DNA of 64,000 nucleotides from Escherichia phage vB_EcoM_EP57: the sequence record OR544956; one strand, given 5' to 3'. The translations under genes were made by a program, and so were the position numbers. The notes under the pieces are model-generated. The model made no database searches, was not told where the DNA came from, and was given only the letters and a program-made list of their open reading frames with translations. Below, piece after piece: positions 2,345 to 17,824 of the stretch (positions are counted from its first letter, which is position 1; every line of letters begins with the position of its first letter).

Positions 2345-2569
2345 TTCATCTCCTCATTTATTCAATGCAAGCATTATTTGCATGACAATCTCCTCTCATC
2401 GTTAGCCATCTTTCATGGCAATCATCAATCACCAACATCATACGATCAATCTCAGGGAATTACAATCGAATTATCATAGGGGATTCCTATCAATTATCCC
2501 ATATATACCGATTATTTTTGACACCCCACTCTTGTATAAAAAGTAACCCAAAATATCTACGGGGAGAGA

Positions 2570-2764
2570 TTATTTCGACACACCCTGTTTCATGGCAATC
2601 ATGGCAAGAATATCTAATAGAATCAATATCATATGGCAAAAATCATGACGCATACGTAAGAAGTGCTTAACGCGAATTTTCGGGCCGTCAGGTCCACGCA
2701 GCGACAATTCCCAAATATCATGCGAATGAGAATAATTATCATTCGTATTCAATGACTTATGCAA
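2570..2764 (-). CDS. hypothetical protein (64 aa)
   Basis: ORF only; weak support. Confidence 0.3.
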   Translation of the reverse strand: MHKSLNTNDNYSHSHDIWELSLRGPDGPKIRVKHFLRMRHDFCHMILILLDILAMIAMKQGVSK

Positions 2765-3787
2765 GGCTCATGCCAACATAGCGACAAGGTGGGCCACCTG
2801 ATTATAAATCACACAAACACTTATTTATCAATGGCTTGGCAACTTCATCATATGACGGAACAATGTCAACTGATCCCGCTCATGACAAACGGACTATTAT
2901 TTATATGAGAATGATTATTATTTAAACGTTTATTAACATAAAAGCCAAAATAAATCAAGAATTTTCTGATTTTATTTACGTTTAAGAGAACTTGCTCAAC
3001 ATATCGCTACGCGATAGTATTCGCCCCCCATGCTAATGATCTCATCTTGTAATTACCACAATGATTATTGTTATTGCGCTAATGTTATGATCTTGGTAAT
3101 TACATATAATGCTAATAATAAGCCAGCGCAATAAGTGTAAGCGTCATTACGCTTGCAATTATTGCAAGCTACGCAGTAACAAGAAATAACCATCACCGAT
3201 GGTTATGATTGTTGGGGTGTAGTTGGCTTATTATTAGCTCGCTATGTGTCCGGCATAGCGTGCTAATGATGACTCTGTGAATGATTCGTTTTGTAATGAT
3301 TTCATTTAGGCACTATTATGGTAATAGTTATTATTTTAATGGTTTCGTTTGTTATTGTTCGTTAGTTGGTTGTTTTGTCGTGTTATCGTTATCTTGTTTA
3401 GTATTCATCATGGTTTGATTGTTTGTTGTTATCAATCATCTTGCTATTATTCCTTTGATTATGATTAGTTTGCTTATTGTTTTAGGTTGTTGGTTAGTTA
3501 GTTGTTGCGAACTATTATCAACATTATAGTTATGCACTTATATTGCATAGATAAACATGGATAGATGATAATGGTTATCATTGCACTAGAAAGGAGGTAA
3601 AAGGGTGTTTTTGATGGTTTGTTGTTGGTTGTTGATCGATTTTAACCGCTATAAATGGCTCTCTAACAGCCTGTTACCCTGGGAGGTATGGTTATTCGTT
3701 TAATGGTTGATTAGCTTGATACCGCTATTTATTCAGTTTTGTTCTGTGTCGGTTTTCCATAGGCGGAATCTATCAACATTATTCAGG

Positions 3788-3815
3788 CAAAAAGAAAGGG
3801 CGCTTGGTGCGCCCC
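3788..3815 (-). terminator. rho-independent terminator
   Basis: hairpin GGGCGC-TTGGT-GCGCCC followed on minus strand by CTTTCTTTTT; downstream of 3831..4250. Confidence 0.6.
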
Positions 3816-3830
3816 TTGTTTTGTTGTCAA

Positions 3831-4250: not shown

Positions 4251-4359
4251 GGTGTTGTCCTTTGTTTCGTTTCGTTGTTTGCTGCCAGTGAGTTAAATAT
4301 AATATAACGCCGATCCCCTGTCAATAGGGGATAGCGCATTATTTACATTTCTTTACGTT

Positions 4360-4837: not shown

Positions 4838-5071
4838 TTATTTTTTATAAAATTTTTCTGCTGTGATATTCTTCCCAGTAGGCTTAACCACTTGCAAGAT
4901 CTTATCATGTGCCGAACGTCCAAAAGAGTAAGATCCGTACACGGTAAACCAATAATCCCCGTTCGGTTGAACGGTTACGGCGGCGTACGGTGTACCTCTT
5001 TCATTATCCCCGATAAAGTGAGAAACATTACCGTTAACATTTGGTTTAGTGCTTTTAATTTGTTCGATCAT
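4838..5071 (-). CDS. hypothetical protein (77 aa)
   Basis: ORF, strand-consistent. Confidence 0.55.
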   Translation of the reverse strand: MIEQIKSTKPNVNGNVSHFIGDNERGTPYAAVTVQPNGDYWFTVYGSYSFGRSAHDKILQVVKPTGKNITAEKFYKK

Positions 5072-5090
5072 GATATGACTCCTAAATCAG

Positions 5091-5148
5091 GCGGGAAACA
5101 TTCCCGCCCTACGTGATAAATAATAATGTAAGCGTGATCCGGTGTCAA
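5091..5148 (-). promoter_or_regulatory. early promoter + 5' hairpin cassette (PeSL-like)
   Basis: minus-strand TTGACA, -10, then hairpin gcgggaaacattcccgcc just upstream of next ORF. Confidence 0.55.
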
Positions 5149-5324
5149 TAGGTAGGATTGTAAAGATTTGATAGTTTATTCCTTTGATGTTTTGTTATTT
5201 GATAGGCGTTAGTTATCAATATATAGCGGGGTCTTCCGGTGATTATCTTCCCCTGTTTCCAGGTGCCGCCCGTTCAATAAGCATAACAAAAAACAGGACA
5301 AAAGCAAGCCCTGTTTTGTAAAGA

Positions 5325-5516
5325 TTAGATCTCGTCACCTATATAATCAGATCTGTTCTTCTCTGTCATACGCTTAAACAATTCTTGCATATGGCTTATA
5401 GCTTGCAATGTGTCTTCTTCCAGACTTGAATCAACATAATCAGGATCATTCTTTACCTTGCTATGGTTGTGATAGCGCAACGCTGCTAATACCTTTCTAA
5501 CTTGTTCTGTATTCAT
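5325..5516 (-). CDS. hypothetical protein (63 aa)
   Basis: ORF. Confidence 0.45.
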   Translation of the reverse strand: MNTEQVRKVLAALRYHNHSKVKNDPDYVDSSLEEDTLQAISHMQELFKRMTEKNRSDYIGDEI

Positions 5517-10264: not shown

Positions 10265-10321
10265 GCGGGAACTATTCCCGCCCTATGTGTAACAGTTTAC
10301 TGAAAATTAGATCCGTGTCAA
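10265..10321 (-). promoter_or_regulatory. early promoter + 5' hairpin cassette (PeSL-like)
   Basis: TTGACA then hairpin gcgggaactattcccgc. Confidence 0.55.
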
Positions 10322-11084: not shown

Positions 11085-11108
11085 GATGTTTTCCTCTTCT
11101 CTTTGTTA

Positions 11109-11169
11109 GGCGGCGGACCATTCCCCGCCTTGATGTAATACAGTTTACTTTATTTTTGCAGTATTGCAA
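11109..11169 (-). promoter_or_regulatory. early promoter + 5' hairpin cassette (PeSL-like)
   Basis: TTGCAA then hairpin ggcggcggaccattccccgcc. Confidence 0.5.
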
Positions 11170-11387: not shown

Positions 11388-11410
11388 CGTGATAATCTCT
11401 CTTCTGTTGT

Positions 11411-11468
11411 GAGCGGCACCATTGCCGCCCTACGTAATACAGTTTACTCTTTTTCTTTCCCGTGTCAA
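11411..11468 (-). promoter_or_regulatory. early promoter + 5' hairpin cassette (PeSL-like)
   Basis: TTGACA then hairpin gagcggcaccattgccgcc. Confidence 0.6.
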
Positions 11469-11726: not shown

Positions 11727-11788
11727 GAGCGGGAAACCACTTCCCGCCCTATGTGATACATCTTACACTAATTTTAAACGTTGTCAAC
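11727..11788 (-). promoter_or_regulatory. early promoter + 5' hairpin cassette (PeSL-like)
   Basis: TTGACA then hairpin gcgggaaaccacttcccgc. Confidence 0.55.
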
Positions 11789-12036: not shown

Positions 12037-12060
12037 GATATTAATCTCTTTTTCAGTGAG

Positions 12061-12119
12061 GCGGGAACTATTCCCGCTCTCTATGTAATACAGTTTACTC
12101 TTTTTATTCGTGCTGTCAA
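12061..12119 (-). promoter_or_regulatory. early promoter + 5' hairpin cassette (PeSL-like)
   Basis: TTGACA then hairpin gcgggaactattcccgc. Confidence 0.55.
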
Positions 12120-14738: not shown

Positions 14739-14936
14739 TTATTCTATTCCTGCGATTTGATTAACGCGCTTGCATTTTGTAGCGTGCTGGTCTTCTGTAA
14801 TGACTCCCATTTCTAACAGGGAATCAATGAAAGATAAAACCGTTTCATGATCATCCTGGGGGTGACTGAACTCAGTAAAACCGTTTACCACTACGTTGAT
14901 TTGTCCAGCTTTCGCCACAATGTGCAATGTTGCCAT
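14739..14936 (-). CDS. hypothetical protein (65 aa)
   Basis: ORF trimmed to ATG downstream of hairpin. Confidence 0.5.
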   Translation of the reverse strand: MATLHIVAKAGQINVVVNGFTEFSHPQDDHETVLSFIDSLLEMGVITEDQHATKCKRVNQIAGIE

Positions 14937-14954
14937 GATCTTAACTCCAAATAG

Positions 14955-15013
14955 TGAGCGGCACCATTGCCGCGCTACGTGGTAAATATTATGCCGCCGC
15001 CTGGCGAACGTCA
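14955..15013 (-). promoter_or_regulatory. early promoter + 5' hairpin cassette (PeSL-like)
   Basis: -35-like TTGACG then hairpin gcggcaccattgccgcg. Confidence 0.5.
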
Positions 15014-15122
15014 ACCATTTTTCAATCTTTTTTATTTTCTTTTTGCTTGCTATATATAAAGAAAAGGGCTATTATCTTTCTACCGCGCCAACCAGGGCGC
15101 ACAACAAAGAAAGGGCGATACC

Positions 15123-15326
15123 ATGACAACTACATTACACCTTATGCACTCATTGGGCTGGCAAGGCGGCACGGTGCACCAGGTAGCAAGCGCAACGGGC
15201 TTAAAGGTTGAAACCGTTCTCAACCTGGGCGATCATAAAGTGGAAGAGATAGAACATTTTGATCCGTTGGCGGCGGGGAAAGCAAGATACCGCCAGGGGC
15301 GCGGGGCGATATGTATTTTTGGTTAG
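15123..15326 (+). CDS. hypothetical protein (67 aa)
   Basis: isolated plus-strand ORF in inter-block region. Confidence 0.3.
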   Translation: MTTTLHLMHSLGWQGGTVHQVASATGLKVETVLNLGDHKVEEIEHFDPLAAGKARYRQGRGAICIFG

Positions 15327-15360
15327 GTGTCCTATCCTGGCAAGAAAACAAAAAATAATC

Positions 15361-15389
15361 TTGACAAGCCCAGGGATCGGGCTTATACT
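15361..15389 (+). promoter_or_regulatory. sigma70-type promoter with no downstream ORF
   Basis: TTGACA-N17-TATACT; reads into ORF-free region. Confidence 0.5.
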
Positions 15390-15662
15390 GTTTTACATAC
15401 AGAAGAGGAAGCGCCACCCCACGGCGTAAAGGCGGGGCTAACATACCAGGGGCACTGGTTGGAAGGTTGATCGCCGGTAGCTCGTCTAAAATAAATTTGT
15501 AAAGAAATGTAAAGATAAAAATAATCGCTTGCTTTTTATTCTTATTGTATGGCGAGGGGACACGGGAGCGCGAGACAAACACCGCCCCTGCGCGTCATTC
15601 TCTAAATGAGATTGATTCTTATTTAATAAAGTAAATGATAATCATTCTCATTTAAAAATTTT

Positions 15663-15850
15663 TGTAAACTTTAAATTTTGCTTTTGTACTTTCATTTTTG
15701 TAAAAGCAAAAAAACTTTAAATACTGTGGGCGCGCAAAATTTTTAAAATTTTCCTTGACTTTTGAGTTTTGTTTTGTATCTAACATTTTAAGATAATTTT
15801 CCTAAACTTTAAATTTTGCTTTTCAACTTTCACTTTTGTAAATTCTTAAA
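15663..15850. repeat. two about 45-bp AT-rich direct repeats about 145 bp apart
   Basis: aaactttaaattttgcttttgtactttcatttttgtaaa vs aaactttaaattttgcttttcaactttcacttttgtaaa. Confidence 0.6.
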
Positions 15851-16188
15851 AAGTTTAAATAATTTGAGGAATTTTTGAGATACTCTCTACGGTGCTGTAG
15901 GAGCCTTATTTCTGTGCTACAAAGTGACACCTTTGTTCTAAAAATGAAAAAAGTTAAAATATCACAAATATCGTCTTTGCGGTATTTTGTCTGGGAAAAG
16001 TATTTCGATCAGTTTATTATGATATTTGCCTAAAAGATTCTGCCCTTTCCAGGTGGCAGGGTTTAGCACCCCTGGTTCATACATCCCCATTCCAATTCCG
16101 TAAACCTTATCGTAGGGGCTTGCTTCAACAAACGTTTTGTATTGGTAAAGGTGTAAGTCTGCATACAAATCTGGATTCTGTACATATT

Positions 16189-16305
16189 TCAAGGATTGAC
16201 TTCCAAACGTTCTTCATCCTCTTTATAACAATCCAACACTGCTTTAAGTTCATCATAGTGGTTCAGAATAGGTTTAAAGATTTCATGATCTGCTAAACGT
16301 GCCAT
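16189..16305 (-). CDS. small hypothetical protein (38 aa)
   Basis: hand-found ORF with AAGGAGAAACT RBS. Confidence 0.3.
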   Translation of the reverse strand: MARLADHEIFKPILNHYDELKAVLDCYKEDEERLEVNP

Positions 16306-16318
16306 AGTTTCTCCTTTG

Positions 16319-17824
16319 TTAATCCATCCACCAGTAGCCATAAACCGCGTCTGCGTCGATGAGTTTGTGTTTGTTGTTCCGCATGTAGTCTAAGATAAGT
16401 AGACGTTTATTGTATCTGGAGAGATTATGACCCTCTTTTCCGCCATAGTCAAAATATTTTGCAAGATCTTTACACTCAAACAAAATCAATTCGGGAGTTT
16501 CTTCATACTGGTCTGTCTGGTACACTTGACGAATGATCATGTATACATCATCGTCTTCCGCTAAATGCTCTACTGGTCCACATCCAGCAGGAACAAATTC
16601 ATAGTCCCATCGAATCAGATGTTTCTCTACTGCTTCAAAGAAGTCCATTCTTTCGTTGCGCATAATTTGAACGTCAACTAACATGTTTCCTCCTCTACCC
16701 AGGGTAGTGGAACGTTGTGTTACAGGTTCCAGCACCACTCGCAGAGTGTTTCCTGGTGTAGTGCTCATAACCAGAATCTTACCACCTTCAATCAGATCAC
16801 AAGTTAGACCATCAGCCGTTGCACATAGATCAATATGTGGATCACCATCTTCATCCAGGATAACATAACTGTTGGTTTCCATTGCTTCCACTTCATCATC
16901 TTTCAAACTTTGTAGATAGATGTTCAGGGAACAAGCACCCGACAAAAACTTAGTAGGGGTGAAGTCGTGCCAGTTATTGATCCAATTCACCTTCAAGGTT
17001 TTGCCATTAGCTACGATAGAAGCCACATTCCATTTAGCATCGTTCCCTAAAGAAATACCCATCATTTCAAGACATTCTTTAAAAGTCATTTTTGGATAGA
17101 AATTCAATTCTTCTACAATGCCTTGAATAACATCGAAAGACAACTCTGTGCTAACATCCCATAAACGTTGGAAGTTATCTACGTGCTTTTTATTTACCAA
17201 GTTCTTATCCAAGTAATCTAACATAGTTTCACTAGACAGTTTATCGTAATTGAAACTGTAGTAGATACGACTAGGACGGTTTACAAAATATTCCGAGATA
17301 TAACCACTATTTTTAGTGAGGATGTAAAGTTTATTCCCACTTCCTGTTCCATCCAACAAGGTCAACAGTGCTTCCTGATCTTCTTTCTTAGCGTACACTT
17401 TATCAAATTCGTCAAATAAAACAACAGCACGATCTGTAATTTTACTCATAAATTCTAAGAAGCCAGCATCTGTGTAAGGCTGTGTAACCAAAATGGTTGG
17501 AATACCTAAACCTTCTGTGGACATTAGGGACATGCTAATTAGTTTAGCTAACATCGTCTTACCACTGCCTTTTGTGCCTGTCAGTAACACCCCAGTATTT
17601 TTACCTTCTTTACTACGACGAGCAAATGTTTTAATAACATGTGCGGCGCGGTCTTTAGTTTCCCCATAAAGAGTGTTCGGAAGAGAGAAACTTTCGCCAC
17701 GCACTAAAGAGTAGTTACCGTGTGGATCGCAGTTGACAACCCAAACTCCAGCAGGAAGTTTATTAGCTTCAACACCATATTCCTTATTTACAACAGCCAC
17801 ATCTCCAAAAATAGTGTATTTCAT
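16319..17824 (-). CDS. AAA-type ATPase, unknown role (501 aa)
   Basis: Walker A GTKGSGKT, Walker B VVLFDEFD. Confidence 0.65.
   Translation of the reverse strand: MKYTIFGDVAVVNKEYGVEANKLPAGVWVVNCDPHGNYSLVRGESFSLPNTLYGETKDRAAHVIKTFARRSKEGKNTGVLLTGTKGSGKTMLAKLISMSLMSTEGLGIPTILVTQPYTDAGFLEFMSKITDRAVVLFDEFDKVYAKKEDQEALLTLLDGTGSGNKLYILTKNSGYISEYFVNRPSRIYYSFNYDKLSSETMLDYLDKNLVNKKHVDNFQRLWDVSTELSFDVIQGIVEELNFYPKMTFKECLEMMGISLGNDAKWNVASIVANGKTLKVNWINNWHDFTPTKFLSGACSLNIYLQSLKDDEVEAMETNSYVILDEDGDPHIDLCATADGLTCDLIEGGKILVMSTTPGNTLRVVLEPVTQRSTTLGRGGNMLVDVQIMRNERMDFFEAVEKHLIRWDYEFVPAGCGPVEHLAEDDDVYMIIRQVYQTDQYEETPELILFECKDLAKYFDYGGKEGHNLSRYNKRLLILDYMRNNKHKLIDADAVYGYWWMD

Follow-up and report, generated by a model that had tools for sequence, protein, structure and literature searches.

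A conserved non-coding region of phAPEC8-like and rV5-like phages carrying a predicted structured RNA and partly related to the phage T5 repeat region

Results

A conserved non-coding unit lies between two blocks of leftward genes

The DNA analysed here is a 64,000-nt stretch (the window) of the genome of Escherichia phage vB_EcoM_EP57 (record OR544956), a phAPEC8-like E. coli myovirus (Phapecoctavirus, Stephanstirmvirinae). Two blocks of leftward genes are separated in it by a gap, present as a single copy in the window, which we refer to as the hub. An initial annotation of 15330-15960 had pointed out a promoter and a pair of AT-rich direct repeats in this gap, and proposed a non-coding RNA locus, a replication origin or a packaging site. 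Comparison with related phages indicated that the promoter and the repeats are two modules of one conserved non-coding unit, since the order of the modules was the same across relatives. This unit was placed between two leftward early gene blocks in all the phAPEC8-like and rV5-like phage sequences examined.

A search with 14900-16400 matched 143 phage records, the top match being Escherichia phage tuntematon (98.4% identity). A sensitive DNA search with 15330-15960 returned 240 phage records from two subfamilies; Vequintavirinae (rV5-like phages) of Klebsiella, Salmonella, Cronobacter, Pectobacterium, Serratia, Erwinia and Pantoea were 70-85% identical over a stretch starting directly 3' of the promoter P1 and confined to it. 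Identity in this search peaked (up to 85%) at 15392-15515, and the 120 nt 3' of P1 are the best conserved sequence of the region in both subfamilies. Five records labelled 'Campylobacter phage' (e.g. MG065645, host C. jejuni) contained an Escherichia-type hub with about 90% identity and are probably mislabelled or contaminant genomes.

The comparison set comprised about 35 relatives; module order was read from 14 annotated relatives, and promoters and open frames from 29. Each of the 14 had a gap of 0.8-1 kb, unannotated or annotated inconsistently, with the modules in the same order. From 5' to 3' these are P1 with a GC-rich dyad in its spacer, a structured RNA (RNA-1), TTTGTAAAGAAnTGTAAAG, a second promoter (P2), a GC-rich element (unit 2), one to five palindromes of the form AATGAGAATnATTCTCATT, a third promoter (in Vequintavirinae), 3-4 direct repeats, 2-3 copies of TTTGAGATAA, a terminator hairpin and (C)AAATATC motifs. 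Neither RNA-1 nor the hub, nor the link between the hub and the T5 injection-stop (iss) region reported below, had been described in the literature searched. As judged from these comparisons, the hub would be a phage non-coding control region that contains a new structured RNA and is partly related to the T5 repeat region.

The hub starts with a near-consensus promoter

The near-consensus plus-strand promoter reported in the initial annotation was confirmed: P1 (TTGACA-17-TATACT, 15361-15389) matches the sigma-70 consensus at 11/12 positions and is the sole plus-strand site of such quality in 12-19 kb. By sequence it falls within the sigma-70 pattern (TTGACA/TATAAT, 16-18 nt apart), and a counterpart scoring 9-12/12 was found in 29/29 relatives, always at the same distance from the downstream element. 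The fixed P1 spacing in 29/29 relatives and the presence of a 3-4-copy direct-repeat array in every relative analysed for repeats argue for more than chance. P1 is thus predicted to be a conserved host-type promoter. Its earlier description as an 'orphan' was only partly apt; P1 is one of 2-3 tandem rightward promoters, which belong to a conserved non-coding transcription unit closed by a bidirectional terminator.

The dyad noticed within the P1 spacer is also real (AAGCCC-AGGGATC-GGGCTT, 15366-15384, plus strand). The hairpin is retained in relatives with other sequences, including G:T pairs on the plus strand, and therefore probably corresponds to the 3' hairpin or terminator of the transcript of a small open reading frame (ORF) located upstream.

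The sequence downstream of P1 is predicted to encode a structured RNA

A covariance model derived from 22 sequences had a single match in the window, at 15395-15514 (141.9 bits), and detected diverged members in viral and metagenome contigs (67-79 bits). RNA-1 itself was assigned to 15395-15484 on the plus strand. The structure, counted on 35 distinct sequences, was made of an invariant hairpin, a loop pseudoknot with the GGGG preceding CTA, a three-pair closing stem, a variable hairpin and a small hairpin. In the window, the invariant hairpin (CGCC/GGCG, the P1 helix of RNA-1) pairs 15412-15415 with 15423-15426; the candidate pseudoknot joins the loop CCC at 15418-15420 to GGG at 15435-15437; the variable hairpin, with its bulged A, occupies 15442-15461 and is followed by the invariant sequence GGAAGGTnGATCGCCGGTAG (15461-15480). 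Folding of 15394-15600 as a single sequence was not better than that of shuffled sequences, and the structure was therefore taken from the comparison.

Across the 35 sequences, 86.8% of the cells were paired and 8 pairs showed changes on both sides. Compensatory cells numbered 34, as against 12 in shuffled alignments, a value reached by 0/500 shuffles; the covariation score was 0.139, compared with 0.058 in shuffles and 0.032 or less in slid controls. The best covarying pairs were 50:78 (AU in 22 sequences, GC in 12) and 53:76 (CG in 29, GC in 5), and pair 55:68 was found as AU (16), CG (6) or GC (2). The pseudoknot pair 27:42 was CG in 28 sequences, AU in 5 and broken in 2. A hairpin formed at one and the same position in each of the 27 distinct versions of the variable arm (27/27); the bulged A was present in nearly all of them, and the loop was UUCG, GAAA or GGGA depending on the lineage. 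The folding of this arm and its lineage-specific tetraloops indicate selection on RNA rather than on double-stranded DNA; changes from G:C to G:U were seen on the plus strand only. Collectively, the alignments indicate that approximately the first 100 nt transcribed from P1 encode a folded RNA under plus-strand structure selection. A non-coding RNA at the hub, one of the functions proposed in the initial annotation, is thus strongly supported by comparative evidence, the best-conserved 120 nt of the region combining compensatory changes with RNA tetraloops.

RNA-1 did not correspond to any family known to Rfam. At the gathering thresholds of Rfam 15, the window and tuntematon had no match; a scan of 15000-16100 with E-values up to 10 gave low-scoring unrelated matches only, and ARAGORN detected no tRNA or tmRNA in the window. 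RNA-1 lacks the 3' GC hairpin followed by a U run typical of Hfq-type small RNAs, the first terminator hairpin being that at 15883-15913. The invariant core had zero exact matches in 185,579 bacterial and archaeal species genomes and was found in phage-sized metagenome contigs.

RNA-1 is followed by a GTAAA repeat, a second promoter and a GC-rich element

The sequence GTAAAGAAATGTAAA (GTAAA-N5-GTAAA) lies at 15499-15513 on the plus strand, directly 5' of the -35 element of P2. It occurs exactly twice in the window (0.25 expected); the second exact copy is located at 4342-4356 on the minus strand and is flanked by two leftward ORFs. The two copies suggest that the genome uses this site, for a promoter-associated factor, in at least two places. 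GTAAA-N5-GTAAA is the CpxR box consensus, and we use this resemblance as a lead only. P2 itself is a remnant in this phage (15529-15542, plus strand), in which TTGCTT and TATTCT are only 2 nt apart following a 14-nt deletion of the spacer. P2 was found in most of the 29 relatives, with spacers of 16-18 nt (TTGCTT-16-TATTCT in Phapecoctavirus; 8-10/12 in most Vequintavirinae). The motif TTGAGATA was also considered as a phage-wide promoter motif and was ruled out, with 2 occurrences in 64 kb.

Unit 2 is a conserved GC-rich element (ATGGCG...GAGACAAACACC...CGTCATTC; 15549-15600, plus strand) with a conserved GAGACAAnCACC loop and an outer stem showing modest covariation. In the distant relative IMGVR_UViG_3300026472_000003 (4960-5440), an inserted ORF splits unit 2 after its first ~20 nt and is followed by a complete second copy of the promoter and unit 2; this contig has four iterons and no Fur-like palindrome.

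Fur-box-like palindromes of the hub match a repeat of phage T5

Two Fur-box-like palindromes follow unit 2: AATGAGATTGATTCTTATT at 15605-15623 and, 29 bp further, AATGATAATCATTCTCATT at 15634-15652. Allowing up to three mismatches, the palindrome consensus was found 4 times in 64 kb (0.16 expected), at 15605 and 15634 in the hub and at 2725 and 2904 in another non-coding gap. The first palindrome lay at a constant offset from unit 2 in 22 phages, most later copies being positioned at 29-bp steps. Up to 5 palindromes were present per relative; here, a 68-nt deletion removed two further copies.

The hexamer-repeat organisation of the palindromes is that of boxes recognised by the host iron regulator Fur, the consensus of which is GATAATGATAATCATTATC (PMC4506495). 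The segment 15631-15649 matches this consensus at 16/19 positions and is the sole match with three mismatches or fewer in 64 kb (0.09 expected); the 52 palindrome copies in relatives all scored 11-16/19. A published list of iron boxes contains the aerobactin-type box GATAATGAGAATCATTATT, which includes TGAGAATCATT, the core of the palindrome family (PMC10665472). The hub copies differ from Fur boxes in their arrangement, being set in a strict 29-bp register between promoters and not over the -10 and -35 elements. The top match in the E. coli chromosome (23/25) was located 43 nt upstream of a TonB-dependent receptor gene, and a second 23/25 match lay at 1501-1525 of a lambdoid prophage of E. 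coli Z1323CEC0015, between a small terminase gene and a TonB-family gene. These best E. coli matches, next to genes for TonB-dependent receptor and TonB-family proteins, fit the candidacy of Fur.

A weak match of the hub search in a T5-like Salmonella phage pointed to the left terminal repeat of T5. Direct repeat C of T5 (CTTAAATGAGAATCATTATCATTTGCATTTC) is 30/31 identical to the tuntematon and phAPEC8 sequence CTTAAATGCGAATCATTATCATTTGCATTTC, and TAAATGAGATTGATTCT (15603-15619) is identical to it at 17/17 nt in the window. Repeat Region 3 of T5, the injection-stop region, contains direct repeat C and palindromes E-J, with paired DnaA boxes before them and nine direct repeats D and AAAAATTTTT after them; the function of the palindromes has not been established (10.1101/866236). 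Both regions are large, conserved and untranslated, have a fixed module order with palindromes followed by a direct-repeat array and AAAAATTTTT, and are found about 8-9% from a genome end. They differ at their start: T5 begins with paired DnaA boxes (TGTGGATAA) and inverted repeats, and no RNA-1 or unit 2 was seen there, whereas in the hub the paired DnaA boxes (IRD'-spacer-IRC') are absent and RNA-1 and unit 2 stand in their place. The T5 direct repeats (TGTGCAAATCCGACA) are unlike those of the hub, and T5 belongs to an unrelated siphovirus family. The T5 region lies within a 10-kb terminal repeat, unlike the hub, which is present in single copy 12.7 kb away from a putative 342-bp repeat. The occurrence of a common site in unrelated phage families infecting the same bacterial order argues for a host protein as the ligand of the palindromes.

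The direct repeats lie in the most AT-rich DNA of the window

The direct repeats had been described as two copies of about 45 bp. The repeats are genuine; their length was understated, as copy 1 (15657-15728) and copy 3 (15795-15866) are 72 nt long and 83% identical, with a partial copy between them (15741-15778) that is 74% identical over 38 nt. The only AAAAATTTTT of the window (15654-15663) is at the head of copy 1. Tandem Repeats Finder returned nothing useful on the window. All relatives analysed had 3-4 direct repeats, spaced by about 63-78 bp (29-75 bp in some) and mostly headed by AAAAATTTTT(T). The ~20-bp core was TGAAAAACCGATCGAGAAC in Mydo-, Certre- and Seunaviruses, TGAAAAACCYCTCAAGT in Vequinta- and Henunaviruses, and AACTTTCAYTTTTG plus AAACTTTAAATA in Stephanstirmvirinae. 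An internal inverted repeat was found in some groups only, which makes a conserved RNA hairpin within the repeats unlikely. Since the layout is kept while the sequence is replaced, as expected for co-evolving sites, the repeats are most likely binding sites for a phage-specific protein. Such a pattern is iteron behaviour and is insufficient alone as proof of an origin.

In agreement with the initial annotation, the surrounding DNA is AT-rich; 15616-15815 has 20.5% GC, the lowest of any 200-bp segment in 64 kb, and A/T tracts of at least 4 nt make up 38.6% of 15640-15880, against 6.7% window-wide. The proposal that this DNA is bent found no support: the tracts are not phased at 10-11 bp (score 0.08, reached by 497/500 shuffles). 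Iteron-type origins have several direct repeats of ~17-22 bp beside an AT-rich, easily melted stretch; the hub has 3 copies with a ~20-bp core beside the GC minimum of the window, and the spacing of the repeats is in mixed helical register. No DnaA boxes were noticed on reading 15330-15960, a formal scan not having been run. In Cronobacter phage CR3 (2060-2135) and at the same site in two relatives, about 1.5 copies of a ~40-nt repeat (ATTGTAACGTATATGTGCCGTTAGT / AATGTAACATTTATGGTACATTAGC) lie to the right of the iterons, before the hub ends; the arrangement is reminiscent of the pseudo-antitoxin of phage phiTE with its 1.5 repeats, but the sequences are unrelated.

A terminator hairpin closes the hub

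On the right side, a TTTGAGATA motif (15874-15882, plus strand; 2-3 copies of TTTGAGATAA in relatives) precedes a terminator hairpin CTCTCTACGGTGCTGTAGGAGCC followed by TTATTTCT (15883-15913), weakened here by a deletion on its left flank. The tuntematon terminator GGCTCTCTACGGTGCTGTAGGAGCC had a calculated energy of -20.2 kcal/mol on the plus strand, where it is followed by UUAUUUCU, and of -16.4 kcal/mol on the minus strand, where it is followed by UAUUAUUUU. Folding thus predicts a bidirectional terminator in tuntematon and phAPEC8, strong in tuntematon, and the phAPEC8 record annotates a terminator at the matching hairpin. The right edge is marked by AAAATATC and CAAATATC motifs (15956-15972; 3-4 copies in relatives). 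The absence of a credible ORF in 15390-15960, as claimed initially, holds; the only long frame is antisense (15220-15582, GTG start). Across 29 relatives the length of this antisense frame swings between 0 and 138 codons, and it is therefore not regarded as a gene.

Discussion

An early RNA and regulatory region wired to host factors is tentatively favoured

Our preferred reading, which we hold with somewhat less than even confidence, is that the hub produces an early non-coding RNA and acts as a regulatory region wired to host factors, and is not a packaging site. Host RNA polymerase would fire P1 upon entry of the DNA into the cell. Since RNA-1 has no terminator of its own, transcription would continue past it through unit 2, the palindromes and the AT-rich repeats, and stop at the bidirectional terminator at 15883-15913. 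The primary transcript would measure about 520 nt in this phage and about 830 nt in relatives, the folded RNA-1 being its stable product. As the palindromes in 29-bp register also occur in unrelated T5-like phages, they would most likely be operators for host Fur or a comparable host factor; they would gate the read-through or the next promoter, or recruit or titrate the host factor. The direct repeats would be bound by a phage-specific protein. The interpretation in the initial annotation is thus partly supported, the non-coding RNA locus strongly so, whereas the packaging site is disfavoured.

Several observations weigh against this proposal. The fold energy of RNA-1 as a single sequence is ordinary (z = 0.16), and its probable pseudoknot depends on few independent events, two sequences breaking the pairing. 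RNA-1 has no intrinsic terminator, and there is no plus-strand terminator-like site in 15395-15880. No partner, target or homologue of RNA-1 was found, 5,426 E. coli genomes giving no match. The structure of unit 2 amounts to a weak outer stem. The palindrome consensus (TGAGAAT-n-ATTCTCA) differs from that of Fur (TGATAAT-n-ATTATCA) at one symmetric position, and Fur binding at these sites is a prediction from sequence. An origin would be equally compatible with iteron-like repeats placed in the most AT-rich DNA. The literature searched contains no transcriptome, RNA-seq, transcription start mapping, origin or Fur sites specific to this phage group.

Cis-acting leader RNAs such as the put RNAs of phage HK022 and riboswitch aptamers are likewise compact, pseudoknotted or multi-helix, begin at the +1 of a strong early promoter and have long unpaired stretches that are invariant. 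RNA-1 differs from these in having no Rfam match, expression platform, terminator or downstream plus-strand gene. A phage non-coding RNA has been described in the same subfamily as the rV5-like relatives: the pseudo-ToxI of the Vequintavirinae phage phiTE, which mimics a type III antitoxin and consists of intergenic repeats (PMC3475682). It is found at another locus, next to tRNA and terminase genes, and its 36-nt tandem repeats are unrelated in sequence; because the locus is different, it was ruled out as a counterpart of RNA-1 or the hub.

A possible replication origin as the main alternative

A transcription-activated replication origin, in which transcripts from P1 and P2 run into the iterons and the easiest-melting DNA and the RNA primes or opens it, is in our view unlikely, although it is the main rival of the preferred reading. 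Transcription primes or activates the T7 primary origin (two promoters and an AT-rich stretch), T4 ori(uvsY) and oriE, and ColE1 RNA II. The hub resembles such origins in that strong promoters are aimed at AT-rich repeat DNA and that the GC skew is positive over 15100-15600, the non-template strand being G-rich. The 3-4 direct repeats with a ~20-bp core, conserved in layout and diverged in sequence by genus, and the GC minimum of the window also point in this direction. Those phage origins, however, need no conserved RNA fold, and a primer or activator transcript would not require the conserved tertiary structure of RNA-1. No recognisable initiator gene adjoins the hub, its neighbours being a fragment of a NADAR gene, an AAA ATPase and unassigned proteins. 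Two of these neighbours had been considered as initiators and were set aside, the AAA ATPase having generic AAA matches only and the ~275-aa neighbour in Vequintavirinae no recognisable identity. The spacing of the repeats is only partly in helical register, and P2, two palindromes and TTTGAGATAA copies have been deleted here, which makes them non-essential if the genome is viable. In T5, the palindrome and repeat module resides in the terminal repeat and is not regarded as an origin, the T5 origins lying near the centre of the genome (10.1101/866236). The rV5 genome paper could not place the replication origin (PMC3606486); if the repeats are an origin, they would settle where replication starts in these phages.

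The position of the probable genome end bears on entry and packaging

In the relative BME3, PhageTerm identified direct terminal repeats of 342 bp (PMC12210895), and the record of this phage starts at a position collinear with ~2668 of the window, within the second non-coding gap (2405-3830). Collinearity thus places a probable genome end at ~2668, and this gap is probably the region of the physical end. The same gap contains Fur-like palindromes at 2725, 2904 and near 3565, the one at 2725 being preceded by a CAAATATC motif. From the hub to this putative left end the distance is 12.7-13.3 kb, or about 8.6-9% of ~150 kb.

The hub could in principle be a T5-type cis-acting entry boundary, at which the palindromes and direct repeats, about 9% from the presumed first-entering end, would halt or organise the incoming DNA and set a first-expressed block of small leftward genes apart; we consider this improbable. 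The palindromes are near-identical to T5 repeat C/E-J and are followed in both phages by direct repeats and AAAAATTTTT; the relative distance from the hub to the putative end compares with 7.9% for the T5 iss (10.1101/866236), and the stretch that separates this end from the hub contains small leftward genes without assigned function. Against this, the T5 iss itself lacks a molecular explanation, and the DnaA boxes emphasised in T5 are missing from the hub. The terminal repeat reported in this group measures 342 bp and not 10 kb (PMC12210895), the palindromes also occur in the terminal gap and so are not specific to the hub, and entry in two steps has never been reported for contractile-tailed rV5-like phages.

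We also entertained, as a long shot, a broader idea by which rV5-like and phAPEC8-like myoviruses and T5-like siphoviruses have in common a cis-acting 'entry boundary' module, about 8-9% from the first-entering end, at which a host DNA-binding protein (Fur or similar) may retain or tag the DNA as it enters and thereby set a pre-early gene block apart; in the myoviral version the module would be coupled to RNA-1, a new class of early structured RNA. This module may consist of Fur-box-like palindromes in fixed register followed by AAAAATTTTT and direct repeats, with RNA-1 replacing the DnaA boxes of T5. In a variant, the arrays may titrate Fur as the phage DNA multiplies, turning on host iron uptake for the iron-dependent nucleotide reductases of the phage.

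It is very improbable that the hub is a pac or cos packaging signal whose repeats are bound by terminase: direct-repeat arrays are generally typical of terminase recognition sites, but the BME3 terminal repeats map to the other non-coding gap, 12.7 kb to the left, the public records of relatives begin at many places (none of those inspected at the repeats), and no terminase was found among the genes checked beside the hub. Hardly any weight can be given to a protein-coding function, suggested by the 113-aa leftward coding sequence annotated over RNA-1 in phAPEC8 (gp009; a 120-aa GTG frame, 15220-15582, in the window) and by small ORFs called within the gap in some records, as the open frame over RNA-1 is so inconstant in relatives, the annotated small ORFs differ from record to record, indels of 1, 3, 5 and 6 nt occur in the hairpin and loop of RNA-1, and its substitutions preserve base pairs and not codons.

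These phages are widely isolated for therapy and biocontrol, and their largest conserved non-coding region is left unannotated or mis-annotated as 'hypothetical protein'. If the preferred reading of an early non-coding RNA is correct, RNA-1 would represent a new family of phage RNAs, produced from the very start of infection, and its invariant stretches imply a conserved partner. The link to T5 would provide a second, independent system for the decades-old puzzle of the T5 palindromes, with Fur as a candidate ligand.

Deletions and neighbouring genes

Relative to tuntematon (MN850618), the first 48 kb of the window have lost sequence at 15 or more places, in deletions that measure 27-1,628 nt, with no net insertions. 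The hub contains four of these deletions, and two more lie within the next 850 bp. In the hub, a 28-nt deletion shifts the frame of the small upstream ORF, a 14-nt deletion removes the P2 spacer, a 68-nt deletion two palindromes, and a 123-nt deletion the left flank of the terminator together with one TTTGAGATAA copy. The deletions spare P1, RNA-1, unit 2, two of the palindromes and the three repeats. If this genome is viable, it can do without the lost modules. Insertions would be expected as well in a natural relative, and the genome may therefore be deletion-selected, engineered or mis-assembled.

Upstream of P1, the promoter-like sequence P0 (TTGCTA-17-TATTAT, 9/12; 15047-15075, plus strand) is divergent from a leftward promoter at 15014-14986 and serves the small rightward ORF (15123-15326, plus strand). 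Its 67-aa product (phrog_19316, motif LGWQGGTVHQVAsATGL) is frameshifted by the 28-nt deletion relative to the 88-aa tuntematon_49. The corresponding slot in relatives holds one of four unrelated small ORFs or is empty. On this comparison the ORF is taken to be cargo, outside the conserved part of the hub, and it was ruled out as a conserved DNA-binding partner.

On the other side, the ORF at 15962-16192 (minus strand) codes for a NADAR-domain protein (PF08719) of which just the C-terminal part is left; the remainder of the gene (tuntematon_50), with the end of tuntematon_51, was lost in a 372-nt deletion. The 501-aa AAA ATPase ORF (16319-17824, minus strand) joins in frame two genes that are separate in relatives (phrog_2376, the ATPase, and phrog_24465). 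With a 1,058-nt deletion (junction at ~16695), the first gene lost its stop codon and the 'endonuclease' gene (tuntematon_53 / phAPEC8 gp013) disappeared entirely; a group I intron was not detected in this locus of tuntematon. A similar GC hairpin (e.g. GCGGGAACTATTCCCGC or GCGGCACCATTGCCGC) is found in the leader of nearly all small leftward early genes, 3' of a TTGACA-type promoter and 5' of the start codon; such hairpins lie at ~10265-10285, 11105-11125, 11410-11430, 11735-11760, 12058-12078 and 14955-14995, and in the phAPEC8 record these sites bear the label 'promoter determined with PHIRE'.

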